Shown here: positions 16,407 through 20,119 of the stretch, in pieces
Layout of the letters: each line of letters starts with the position of its first letter
How positions within the stretch are numbered: position 1 is the stretch's first letter
Assembly (NCBI GenBank): GCA_947630195.1
Contig: CANRGQ010000003.1
Span: 1-35,130 of the forward strand
From: an uncultured Bacilli bacterium
Lineage (GTDB): Bacteria; Bacillota_I; Bacilli_A; RF39; UBA660
Length of the DNA: 35,130 bases
Direction of reading: 5' to 3'
Notes under the pieces: model-generated
Databases searched by the model: none
What the model was told of the DNA's origin: nothing
The model's input: the letters and a program-made list of their open reading frames with translations, nothing else
Translations under genes and position numbers: made by a program

Positions 16407-16472
16407 AAAAAGAGAATGAGTTTTATTTTATTTATTCTCACTTTCTATAAATACATAGATTATAAAATTTCG

Positions 16473-16556
16473 GTGCCGGTAATATTTTATATAAATATAT
16501 ATAATATTCTTCTACCGGCACGCCTTTAATTTTCGCCATATGGCCGCCTTGGGCGA
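16473..16556. repeat. GC-rich hairpin cluster directly after the 394-aa gene
   Basis: GTGCCGGTA (16473-16481)/TACCGGCAC (16513-16521) around a self-complementary AT stretch; GCCATATGGC and CGCC-TTG-GGCG hairpins within 16535-16555. Confidence 0.7.
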
Positions 16557-16558
16557 TA

Positions 16559-17743
16559 TTATGCATTATTCTTAGTTGTGATTCTAAATGGGTCAGTTGC
16601 TGTACCTGCACCCGTTAAATTTATCGCGGATTGAAGATAGAAGACAGGTCGAACCGCATACGCATAGTCGATAAGATACCACCACAAGCCGCCGTTCGTC
16701 TCTACACACCACGCCTCGTAAGTGCTGCCATCTCGGCCCCTGTAGTAGCCATACCTAGACATGGTCCATTCATTTAAAGAATTTCCACTTAATGTTGAAC
16801 TTGTGCTCCATCCATTTTTTACATATAACCAACTACTTGTTCCAGTACTTGCATTATTAAAATCTGTAGCATACATTAAAGCAACTTTATTTGCTGCACT
16901 TTGACTTGTTTTTGGTTCTACTGTTCCTGGTGTACTTGTTTGGTCTGCATTATACCATTTTTGACTTGTTACTATACTGTCCCAATATGTTCCGTTTGGT
17001 TGTTTGTTTTTTATGTTTGTATTATACCATGATGTTACATGACTTTTGGTACTTGATGAATCCCATTTAATATCACTAGTGTAATTACTATACCATACTT
17101 GACTTGTACTAGATGGTGTTGCCTTGATTAATTTTAATTGATCTTTTTTTAATCCTAACGTATTATCATCTGCTGAAGTTATCCCTATTATTCTAAACAT
17201 ATATTTATCTGGTGTTTTTAAACACTCATCTTTATCGGTTGTTCCAAAACATATATAATTATTTGTTACGGCTGTGGTTGTCCCTTTATATCTATACATT
17301 CCATCCACTGCAGAAGTTAAGTTTAATGTTGAACCTTTTGTTTCTTCTAATGCTTGTAATAAAGGTCTACCTTTAGCAAAGTATAAGGTACAATAAATAC
17401 TATTTTTAGTATCTATTGTGGCATGATAAGTTGATAAATCAAAATGCAGTATATTTGTATAATCTATTTCTTTTCCATCACTATCTGTACATTCAGCTCC
17501 CACAAATCCGTGTGTTGTGGGACTTGGCCATGAATCTCTATTATCTGCTTCATGCCATTCATCATCTTCACTATCTTGTACCCATATCGCTATTGATTTA
17601 TCATTACTTAATATATTATTAGTTTCTATTTCTTCTATCTTATTAGGTTTAGTATTTAAAGTTCTTATTATATTATAACTTTCTCCTAATATTAAAATTC
17701 CTACTATAATTATGATTATTGTTAATATTTTATCTTTCTTCAT
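16559..17743 (-). CDS. Membrane-anchored surface protein with C-terminal CLec/DUF6273-like domain, putative DGR target
   Basis: N-terminal TM; YRYKG...NNYICFG...FRIIG core; C-terminal EWTMS...AWCV...G...AVRPVFYL...GAGTATDPF. Confidence 0.75.
   Translation of the reverse strand: MKKDKILTIIIIIVGILILGESYNIIRTLNTKPNKIEEIETNNILSNDKSIAIWVQDSEDDEWHEADNRDSWPSPTTHGFVGAECTDSDGKEIDYTNILHFDLSTYHATIDTKNSIYCTLYFAKGRPLLQALEETKGSTLNLTSAVDGMYRYKGTTTAVTNNYICFGTTDKDECLKTPDKYMFRIIGITSADDNTLGLKKDQLKLIKATPSSTSQVWYSNYTSDIKWDSSSTKSHVTSWYNTNIKNKQPNGTYWDSIVTSQKWYNADQTSTPGTVEPKTSQSAANKVALMYATDFNNASTGTSSWLYVKNGWSTSSTLSGNSLNEWTMSRYGYYRGRDGSTYEAWCVETNGGLWWYLIDYAYAVRPVFYLQSAINLTGAGTATDPFRITTKNNA
16641..16760 (-). other. 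Putative DGR variable region (VR)
   Basis: 66/120 G+C (55%) versus 35/120 (29%) in 16771-16890 of the same gene; many NNC/NNT codons between fixed GCG TGG, AAC GGC and GCG GTT CGA CCT anchors. Confidence 0.6.
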
Positions 17744-17758
17744 TTTGTTTTCTCCCTT

Positions 17759-18578
17759 CTATTTACTAAAGTAGGCATAACAAGTATTTGGCCCAGTAGT
17801 ATCTATATGAAAACCTTTTGATATATCGTATGTAAATGTTGTACTTGCTTTTTTACTTTTACACTCATAATTTGTCATAGAATAACCATCTGGTACTTGA
17901 TTATATAATTTATAAGTTTTGTCATTATATTTTCTATCCCCTGTTGCATCTTCTATATAAGCATAAATAATTACATCTGATAATTTATCTCTATCATAAT
18001 AAAGTCGACATACTACTTGCGTAGGTTTTGCTTTTTCAGTATATTCAATATGAACTGTTCCATCTTCTTTAATAGTATAATTATCATAAGTTGCATCTCC
18101 TCCGGCTGCAGGATAACAATTAGATTTATCTCCATTTATTTGATATCCACTGGCGGGTACATATTTACTCTCTTTATATTTGTTAGCATTATCAGGCATT
18201 TGGGTATAAAAGATTATATTAACATCGGTATTTTTATCTATTGGACCTTGTTTAACTGATTCCCCTTCACCAGCAAAGTTTCCTACTTTGGATGTAAATA
18301 TAGGGACTGGAGCCATTTCATAATTATAGTAAGCATGGGTTTTATTAATTGTCACATTTATTAGTAACAACGCAAAAAATACTAATACGAATATTCCTAA
18401 TATTAGTTCTTTATTTTTTAATTTTTCTTTTATATTATAAAGTTTATCTTTAAAGTTATTTGGTATGAATACTAAAGATATTAAGGTGTTACAATAACCC
18501 CCCCCCGATTTGGGTATTTAGAACTACTAATGTAAGTATTGCTACATATAATACTATTCTTTTAATTTCTTTCTTCAT
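17759..18578 (-). pseudogene. Surface protein gene frameshifted at a G9 tract (phase-OFF contingency gene; 272 aa if G8)
   Basis: AGAGGT SD + ATG 18578 gives MKKEIKRIVLYVAILTLVVLNTQIGGGLL*; the frame of ORF 17759-18370 is open back to the tract and closed just above it (TAA 18520-18518). Confidence 0.75.
18498..18506 (-). repeat. Poly-G9 homopolymer, slipped-strand phase-variation tract
   Basis: Nine consecutive C on + strand in very AT-rich DNA, located at the frame junction; G8 or G11 restores frame. Confidence 0.8.
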
Positions 18579-18747
18579 ACTCTTACCTCTTTTATATTAT
18601 TAATTATTATTTATATTTTTATACTTATGTTGTAAATACCGAATATTAATTACAAAATAAAAATAATATTCTTCTACCTTACATTTAAATAATATAATAT
18701 TTATTCTATTTAGTCAATACAGAAAAACAAAAAATTTCTTCTAGAAC

Positions 18748-18799: not shown

Positions 18800-20119
18800 A
18801 TGGAAAAAGAAGGAAAAAAGATAGATTCTGATAGATTTCATAAAATATATAGAATACCAAATATTGATACTCATGGGGAATATTTAACAATTAGAAAATT
18901 TTTAAAGAAGGATTTTGACTCTTTACCAAAATTAGATGATTTTATTAATACATACATGAATAATTATAATATATGGCACGAAACCGATGAGGAAAGAGAA
19001 GCTAGAGCCAATCGAGAATACAACCGAGAAATTGATGGCTATAATTTTTATAAAAAGAATTTACTTACAGCAATTAAAAAAATCTTAGAAAAAGATGAAA
19101 ATGAAATTTTAGATAATGTGTATGTTAAATATATTCATTGTATATATCCAGATGTTACTACAAGACCTGAATCTTTTGTAAGATTACCATATTATGAACG
19201 AAATAGAAATATTAGAGATAGACATGGCATTTTAATTTTAAAAACTAAGGATGGTAAATCAGCAATTTTAGATGTTATTCATAATCCTTATGCCTATAAT
19301 CAAAATAGCAAAAAGAATTTAAAGATAAAAAATATTCTCAAATTTGCCAAATATGAGTATAAACCATTACATCCCAATCCTGATAAAAGAATTCCTGTAA
19401 TTGCTCATAATTTAGAAACTAATTTAGAAGGCTTAATTAATTATAAAACATGTCAAATTGAAAATGAAAAATTTGATAAAATATATTATAAACAAAATAA
19501 ATTATTTTCTGGTTATCTCCTATTAGTGGGAGAGAGAAATGGAAAACTTGGAACCACAGATGGCTATGTTCCCCCAAAATTCGATGATATAAATGGTGTT
19601 ATTAGAGTAAATTATTATGAAGTTCCAAAAGATACTCCTTGTTATATAACTACCTTAAATGGTAAAGAAGGCGCCTATTTTATTGGTAAAAGAGGCCACT
19701 ATAGATATGTTGATAACGGACTTCATGAACGGACATTTGCCCAAACCAGTTTGAAAAAAATTATAATTCCTAATTTCTTTGATAAGGTTATCTTATTAGA
19801 TTTTAGCCCAATTTGTCATCCTAATCATACAATGGAAGAATTTATTTCTAATCCAATTTTTAAAGTTGTTCTTAATGGCAAAGAAGGAATATATTTAGGT
19901 GGCGAAAAGAAATTTTTAGCCCCTCCTATCTTTGATATTGATGGTATATCTAACTATGATTTAGATAATCAAACAATTGAAGGTTATATTGATGGTATTC
20001 ACCATATTTATCAAAATGGTATCTTAAAAAGAATAGAAACTGTTGATTTAACTATTTCAGATGATACTAAAGAATCATTAAATATATTTATTAATAAAGT
20101 TCGAAAAAGAACTAGATAA
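18800..20119 (+). CDS. Hypothetical 439-aa protein with C-terminal WG/KWG-like beta repeats
   Basis: AGGAGG SD; repeated NGKLG..YVPPKFDDI, NGKEG..IIIPNFFDKV, NGKEG..LAPPIFDI. Confidence 0.7.
   Translation: MEKEGKKIDSDRFHKIYRIPNIDTHGEYLTIRKFLKKDFDSLPKLDDFINTYMNNYNIWHETDEEREARANREYNREIDGYNFYKKNLLTAIKKILEKDENEILDNVYVKYIHCIYPDVTTRPESFVRLPYYERNRNIRDRHGILILKTKDGKSAILDVIHNPYAYNQNSKKNLKIKNILKFAKYEYKPLHPNPDKRIPVIAHNLETNLEGLINYKTCQIENEKFDKIYYKQNKLFSGYLLLVGERNGKLGTTDGYVPPKFDDINGVIRVNYYEVPKDTPCYITTLNGKEGAYFIGKRGHYRYVDNGLHERTFAQTSLKKIIIPNFFDKVILLDFSPICHPNHTMEEFISNPIFKVVLNGKEGIYLGGEKKFLAPPIFDIDGISNYDLDNQTIEGYIDGIHHIYQNGILKRIETVDLTISDDTKESLNIFINKVRKRTR

Follow-up and report, generated by a model that had tools for sequence, protein, structure and literature searches.

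Among the described diversity-generating retroelements (DGRs), that of BPP-1 (mtd with its variable region VR1, avd, template repeat, spacer, brt) shows adenine-specific differences between the template repeat (TR) and the variable region (VR), with the VR at the C-terminus of a lectin fold, and both traits recur in the system described here. In the passages of Naorem et al. [quoted passage not shown] The Bordetella DGR RNA, as outlined in parts of a preprint (bioRxiv 10.1101/2023.10.23.563531), comprises a template:primer duplex, a few nucleotides (nt), an upstream:spacer duplex, a stem-loop and adenosines. Leftover targets have been noted in Treponema where the core DGR was lost, at least in the passages concerned, and those parts of the surveys that give numbers mention at most eight targets per DGR (Stenotrophomonas), seven non-adjacent ones (Treponema) and 'two or more' TRs. 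The present study concerns a contig of 35,130 nt from an uncultured Bacilli bacterium (CANRGQ010000003.1, assembly GCA_947630195.1, forward strand), in which a gene for a 394-amino-acid (aa) protein ends in a GC-rich VR. The whole of this stretch is referred to as the window; it is the entire contig C3 of its genome, G000, an assembly of 1.17 Mb in 87 contigs with a completeness of 81% and a GC content of 27%.

The VR in the window was made by a DGR at some time with a probability that we put at about 95%. A reverse transcriptase (RT), an Avd-like open reading frame (ORF), TR cassettes, a family of VRs, an adenine bias, a lectin fold and complementarity between the VR flank and the cassettes were all found. 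Whether rewriting continues is a separate matter; on balance it is somewhat more probable than not that it does.

The variable region and its lectin-like protein

The initial annotation had drawn attention to a GC-rich segment in an AT-rich gene, and its figures were reproduced, with 0.55 GC at 16641-16760 against 0.292 at 16771-16890. The peptide quoted there lies in the target ORF on the minus strand (Table 1), with the island at the 3' end of that ORF. Sliding a 120-nt frame over the 35-kb window (n=3501) gave a mean GC of 0.269 (standard deviation 0.063), with the top value starting at 16641; only eight of the 3501 positions had a GC of at least 0.50, and every one of them started within 16591-16661.

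The variable tip was expected to occupy the C-terminal, ligand-binding part of a C-type-lectin-like fold, and this is borne out by an AlphaFold2 model (mean predicted local distance difference test score 88.0, predicted template modelling score 0.83) together with its structural matches. In the model an N-terminal hydrophobic helix (residues 3-28) is followed by a beta domain and then by a domain of approximately residues 125-394. By far the best match found with VIA-align (Z 15.9) was the N-terminal region of the Thomasclavelia ramosa IgA peptidase (residues 32-308 of 9qa6_A), with 201 residues aligned to target residues 126-394 at a root-mean-square deviation of 3.2 and 14% identity. The C-terminal domain of Legionella Lcl (8q4e_A) followed with Z 7.8, many C-type lectins scored Z 5-6.5 and Treponema TvpA (2y3c_A) Z 5.8; values under 8 are weak when taken singly, and the list of matches is lectin-fold throughout. 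The hydrophobic N-terminus is the one feature that suggests a membrane-anchored protein at the cell surface.

At the sequence level the protein is less easily placed. It had no family above threshold in Pfam or NCBIfam, no match to Pfam DUF6273 (PF19789) at E up to 1, and no match when the PDB was searched with the family profile (best E 0.22). It forms a singleton cluster with its nearest relative 70% identical. Some homologues among the 120 listed carry a precomputed PF19789 match, and the protein is thus a relative of PF19789 without counting as one of its members. The scaffold (RYG, AW, G.L and AVRPVFYL) is conserved over 95 homologues, unlike the residues that lie between these positions.

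A search of the genome with the window protein (tblastn, E at most 1e-5) gave 29 matches at 28 family loci. Among 25 family 3' ends, 20 have a GC peak of at least 0.49 above bodies of 0.28-0.35, and four tips (C1, C22, C32 and C14), with a maximum GC of 0.39-0.43, look decayed. The window VR, at 0.55-0.56, is among the highest of the 25 and equals the VRs closest to templates.

The remote module and its template cassettes

The window was said to hold neither an RT nor a template, and neither was found there: the three RVT_1 matches of the genome lie on C27, C28 and C4, and on C3 the cassette profile (see below) matches nothing but the VR. The initial annotation had predicted a remote DGR, and it was located on contig C4 as a series made up of a template cassette, MutS-like and Avd-like ORFs and an RT (Table 1). 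A TR lies about 500 nt upstream in this module, and the RT starts approximately 850 nt after it. Because the RT, the Avd-like gene and the TRs all sit on contigs other than C3, any diversification of the target must act in trans, as had been proposed.

The Avd-like ORF matches NF033474 over profile positions 2-104 of 104 (E 2.2e-8, 34.4 bits, cut-off 80) and PF22296 with E 2.3e-6 (28.5 bits, cut-off 40), and the 103-aa MutS-like ORF before it has a faint MutS_I match (E 0.063, 13.9 bits). The RT contains an IGNMTSQ motif, which we take to resemble the signature of DGR RTs. The other two RTs of the genome are of different appearance. That on C28 (L010 1261-2292, minus strand) scores 219.6 bits with the retron St85 model (cut-off 235) and has small ORFs on its flanks; it is possibly a defence retron. 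That on C27 (L009, C27:11975-12643) has the strongest RVT_1 score, 144.7 bits, in a 431-aa open frame and, judged only by score and length, is probably a group II intron protein.

The templates were sought with an nhmmer profile built from six full cassettes and run over the genome of the window. It marked 30 places, namely 13 cassette matches and 17 VRs inside genes, one of which is the window VR (C3 16784-16637, E 3.7e-10). Nine of the 13 cassette matches have a complete TR, the other four being truncated or cut by contig ends. The complete TRs lie outside ORFs, with no in-frame start in any of the nine and a stop 34-46 codons past RYG. In composition the nine TRs contain 31% A and 33% AAC/AAT codons, compared with 18% A and 5% AAC/AAT codons in the 17 VRs; the window VR core has a GC of 0.56 and an A content of 0.20 against TR means of 0.48 and 0.31.

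An alignment of 21 cassettes (two from the genome of the window and 19 from the sister genomes G020 and G052) shows a constant order, in which an invariant TATAAT-like (-10) box is followed by the leader AUAGGUAAUCUUGAUAUAG, the TR, a 3' domain of approximately 130 nt with the primer strand, and a terminator in the form of a hairpin and a T-run; upstream of the box the sequence is unconserved. RNAalifold predicts an 11-bp duplex joining the leader to the 3' domain, three local hairpins, and a 7+3-bp duplex between the TR 3' flank CCUUCUAU and the downstream strand AUAGAAG. In the predicted structure 99.6% of cells pair, as opposed to 42-49% with slid partners, compensatory changes occur in nine pairs, and none of 500 shuffles reached the covariation score. 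The two long-range helices are invariant, so covariation is mute on them either way. On these features each cassette resembles a complete gene for a DGR RNA; three cassette-bearing loci gave no match in Rfam at E up to 0.1.

Two cassettes, the one adjoining the RT (C4:1293-1623) and C67:4621-4936, carry the primer-strand variant GAAGAAGCGAAGAC in place of GAAGATAGAAGAC, which implies weaker pairing with both TR and VR flanks. It was also observed that target VRs are often followed, 140-570 nt downstream, by a cassette of like orientation (G020 L060/C18 and L063/C28; G000:C19:19103-19749). Such a neighbouring TR is not the cognate of the adjacent VR, neither at G000:C19, where the unit lengths are 85 and 94 nt, nor at G020 L060 and L063; the neighbours differ in length and in non-A positions.

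The system is not confined to this genome. Cassette matches were found in 18 of 42 genomes of the genus (G000 counted), and each of the five relatives checked has exactly one match to the C4 RT (78-100% identity) together with 6-14 cassette matches. Database records encoding an RT of the C4 type come from metagenome-assembled genomes of uncultured Bacilli and from one such genome labelled 'Mycoplasma sp.'.

Table 1. Positions of the target gene, its associated elements and the remote module (window coordinates unless a contig is named).
Feature	Position	Strand	Description
Target gene, 394 aa	16559..17743	minus	ORF; hydrophobic N-terminal helix, beta domain, C-type-lectin-like domain with VR
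VR core, 109 nt	16648..16756	minus	AGGTATGGC (RYG) to GCGGTTCGAC (AVR), encoding RYGYYRGRDGSTYEAWCVETNGGLWWYLIDYAYAVR; nhmmer cassette profile
IMH-like 3' flank of VR	16633..16646	minus	TGTCTTCTATCTTC on coding strand; exact complement of cassette primer strand GAAGAUAGAAGACA
GC-rich 3' untranslated region element with hairpins	16472..16557	minus	1 nt past stop codon; RNA fold; subset of paralogues
Upstream gene, 203 aa from TTG start	17759..18370	minus	frame open to 18517; co-oriented
Short leader ORF	18489..18578	minus	MKKEIKRIVLYVAILTLVVLNTQIGGGLL and stop; AAGAGG before it; G9 at 18498-18506
Template cassette	C4:1293-1623		non-coding, reads RYGYNSSNDWYNAWNVNTDGNLNNNNVDWTTPAVR, AAC/AAT-rich; upstream in module
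Avd-like ORF, 128 aa	C4:2103-2489		overlapped by RT; NF033474 DivGenRetAVD and PF22296 bAvd matches
RT, 374 aa	C4:2473-3597		RVT_1 66.7 bits (cut-off 29.6)

Adenine signature, homing flank and alternative origins

For the comparison of templates with targets, TRs and VRs were divided at analyst-chosen anchors to give two loops of variable length and three scaffold blocks of fixed length, and for each VR block the TR block of the same length with the fewest non-A mismatches was taken. The adenine-directed differences expected of a DGR were found across the family. A template A underlies 143 of 214 scaffold mismatches, A making up 24% of the scaffold bases, and the same minimisation for C, G and T gave 30, 39 and 40 mismatches. 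A self-BLAST, which served as an independent screen, aligned C12:21411-21478 with C37, and all nine mismatches were at A.

Block by block, the VR on C37 has no non-A difference and 14 at A, with a first loop of the C16 type and a second loop and last scaffold of the C12 type; no single TR fits it. Two VRs of G020 behave similarly, L062 with one non-A and 14 A differences by blocks against six and 16 with the best single TR, and L050 with two and 16 against seven and 21. Alignment of VRs over their whole length with single TRs yielded no clean adenine-only pair; these alignments include a non-homologous 5' stretch, which inflates the non-A count. The VRs may be block mosaics of several templates, and we do not put it more strongly because choosing the best template for each block lowers the non-A counts by construction. 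The mosaic look could stem from homing that is partial or serial, from template switching, from exchange between paralogues or from TRs missing in the assembly.

In the flank 3' of the VR, the plus strand at 16633-16646 has ten exact 14-nt matches to cassette 3' domains. Among the 17 VRs complementarity to the primer strand extends over 14 nt in the window VR, the longest, over 13 nt in three, 11 nt in eleven and 8 nt in two. A flank of this type distinguishes VRs from TRs, the match being at least 11 nt in 15 of 17 VRs and 7 nt in all nine complete TRs. By the pairing model of Naorem et al. the flank in the window would be a fully competent homing site. Between the CGCC and AGCC motifs the spacer is variable in templates (0-5 nt) and constant in VRs; transfer therefore probably leaves out the final few nucleotides ahead of the flank, which would also excuse the CGA and CCT codons found there in the window VR.

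Taken together, these observations are consistent with the following course of events. The RT would copy the TR RNA into cDNA, misreading adenines; with the RNA primer strand still attached, the cDNA would anneal to the coding strand of the target, where the primer strand would pair with the sequence immediately 3' of the VR (for the target gene, 14 of 14 nt); and the cDNA would replace either the whole VR or only its 3' part. The outcome would be a rewritten ligand-binding face on a membrane-anchored lectin-fold protein.

An origin without a DGR, by horizontal transfer, plain gene conversion between paralogues or selection for glycine- and aromatic-rich codons, would draw on approximately 28 family loci able to exchange 3' ends, and exchange of some kind is visible in the sister genome. 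There, the gene at L024 1551-2666 (G020:C3) is 87% identical in DNA to window 17129-18695, which covers the 5' part of the target gene, the upstream gene and the leader region; the C-terminus of the L024 gene is different and lacks the RYG...AVR scaffold, and the opposite flank of the target gene corresponds to another G020 contig (L025, 95% identity). Tips or whole genes of the family seem to have been exchanged or relocated, and a close relative with a non-VR C-terminus points to exchange of tips by recombination. Against such an origin, the limits of the island are exactly those of the homology to non-coding templates rich in Asn codons, one of which adjoins an RT and an Avd-like gene, and the differences within the family are strongly biased to adenine (143 of 214, with 30-40 when C, G or T is taken instead). 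An origin of this kind is accordingly regarded as very improbable.

A further question is whether the VR was written once, lost its template or saw it diverge, and has since changed by ordinary mutation. In favour of this, a cognate template, which had been expected to differ almost only at adenines, was not recovered: the nine TRs of the genome leave 8 non-A against 15 A differences, and the 33-nt first loop of the window VR is unmatched in length by any TR. Even with 28 TRs, including those of the sisters G020 and G052, the last block still shows three non-A and three A differences. Several of the non-A differences are silent, at third codon positions (GTG>GTA, CGC>CGA) that are invariant in the templates, and have the look of ordinary drift after the VR was last rewritten. 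With the G020 VR L060, which is visibly decayed (GC 0.50), the window VR shares its 33-nt loop and its ATC/ATA-GAC codons, so that the lineage of the window VR may be old; the low-GC tips mentioned above are other members of the family that have clearly decayed. Further points count against the DGR reading more generally. The best named NCBIfam model for the C4 RT is a group II intron RT (94.6 bits, cut-off 300), in a comparison made without a DGR-specific RT model; the Avd-like, bAvd and MutS_I matches all fall under the curated cut-offs; the block-wise choice among many TRs favours low non-A counts, as noted; and, with 81% of the genome in 87 contigs, the counts are minimum values and most adjacencies are hidden. 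That same incompleteness, with four cassette matches truncated or cut by contig ends, also speaks against a lost template. So do the GC of 0.55, as high as in the VRs closest to templates, the flank with the longest complement to the primer strand, and the blocks that match templates of the sister genomes with few non-A changes. Against template L040 the central scaffold has one non-A and three A differences and shares with it an otherwise odd GAG; the second loop has one and six against L041; and the last 21 nt of the first loop differ from the first loop of L037 and L049, templates of the sister genomes, only by A>C, A>G and T>G (one non-A, two A). The 12 extra nucleotides 5' of that stretch might, speculatively, reflect a mis-registered 5' junction at a repeated GGC. 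A VR that is no longer rewritten is therefore considered possible, if on the doubtful side.

Setting of the gene and comparison with known systems

The target gene appears to form the second half of a two-gene operon. The upstream gene (Table 1) stops 15 nt before the target ATG, and the pair is kept in G020, where a 202-aa ORF lies directly upstream of a 371-aa family member (L024). Ahead of the pair, the short leader ORF with its G9 run stops after 29 aa ('off'), and G8 or G11 would lead into the frame 17759..18517 to give 272 or 273 aa. The genome has 13 runs of eight or more G or C, seven of them within 1,500 nt of a family gene and upstream of its start. Eight such leaders were found: six have G9 (29-31 aa), one has G11 and reads through ('on'; C68, 273 aa), and the eighth, which lies at a contig end, has G10. 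Judged from sequence, a poly-G on/off switch would head the operon that ends in the DGR target. Divergent from this operon, on the plus strand at window 18800-20119, is a 439-aa ORF for which Pfam gave no match with an E of 1 or less.

The hairpins that had been seen directly after the stop codon and taken as a DGR feature are real and are not DGR-specific. A 136-nt RNA of this region folds with -33.7 kcal/mol (z = -3.07; 2 of 200 shuffles were as good), into two small GC hairpins and a long hairpin with arms at 16472-16481 and 16513-16521. The 5' motif of the element occurs at six places in the genome (C3, C5, C8, C19, C47 and C85) and the long-hairpin motif at five of these, C19 being the exception. 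Sibling targets, which the initial annotation had suggested looking for, exist, with 16 further VRs in the genome; the post-stop hairpins that they were expected to share are limited to six places. The hairpin motif was not seen in the 150 nt past the frame stop of the VRs closest to templates (C37, C41 and C10:20917). Nor is there a DNA hairpin or cruciform directly after the IMH-like flank, where 16556-16640 folds with -4.6 kcal/mol (z = -0.01); the GC hairpins begin approximately 75 nt beyond it, past the stop codon. Given its distribution over six places and its absence from the 150 nt after the template-closest VRs, the element was rejected as a part of the DGR. It has an invariant 8-bp stem, GUGCCGGU/ACCGGCAC, with an AT-rich loop of about 30 nt, and follows five or six family genes; most simply it is a 3' end element of one subfamily, and it may act as a terminator or stabiliser.

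With regard to significance, an 'orphan' composition island becomes an annotated part of a working-looking DGR, and 28 loci of approximately 1.2 kb amount to about 3% of 1.17 Mb, a measure of how far a very small genome can be devoted to programmed variation of its surface. The system also offers a natural experiment, with one enzyme module, many co-functional template RNAs and targets with graded primer-strand matches of 8-14 nt, in which target finding and entry of the cDNA (primer-IMH pairing) and the making of mosaic VRs by partial homing from several templates are testable. A wider model is put forward tentatively, at somewhat less than even odds. In it, one RT/Avd/MutS-like module would serve a genome-wide library of at least a dozen autonomous genes for template RNAs; the mosaic VRs would arise by template switching or by partial homing anchored at the 3' end, with the shared primer strand as guide; combinatorial choice of cassette would come on top of adenine mutagenesis; and poly-G switches would act on the same operons, giving programmed surface variation in a reduced (about 1.2-1.4 Mb) lineage of gut Bacilli.

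Comparison with BPP-1 shows a further likeness, in that pairing of the primer strand is better at the flank of the VR than at that of the TR, here over 11-14 nt against 7 nt; in the BPP-1 record, spacer 47-56 when reverse-complemented agrees with the VR in 9 of 10 positions and with the TR in 6 of 10. The idea of pairing between primer strand and IMH is already contained in the priming passages of Naorem et al. (2017; PMC5703328). The helices of the cassettes also follow the same order as those of the Bordetella DGR RNA. BPP-1 differs in having one TR between avd and brt, one adjacent target and a DNA stem-loop directly past the IMH; here autonomous templates are scattered over the chromosome, there are 17 or more VRs, and no hairpin stands directly past the flank.

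Among chromosomal systems, the Treponema denticola DGR, as far as the passages on it describe TvpA and seven remote targets, is alike in having many remote paralogous lectin-fold targets served in trans; it is described there with one TR type per isolate and an HRDC accessory, compared with 9-13 different TRs and MutS-like and Avd-like accessories in the present case. The MutS-like (MSL) type of DGR, 'Architecture D' in the relevant section of Wu et al. (2018; PMC5758913) and including the Legionella DGR, likewise combines a small MutS-like ORF with avd and RT, and the order of TR, MSL-like, Avd-like and RT on C4 corresponds to it, the MutS_I match here being faint. Template libraries are not described in the main-text passages of the DGR surveys; the supplements were outside this scope, and a description elsewhere is possible. 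Many lectin-fold targets in one genome have their counterparts, according to the passages concerned, in the Stenotrophomonas DGR, with two TRs and six VRs in DUF1566 proteins, and in Thiohalocapsa PB-PSB1 with its nine DGRs, which unlike the genomes here, with one C4-type RT each, has several RTs. The target gene in the window is thus a DGR target of a known type, and what sets this system apart from those described is the combination of one RT with dispersed, self-contained templates, mosaic-looking VRs, 17 or more targets and poly-G switches.

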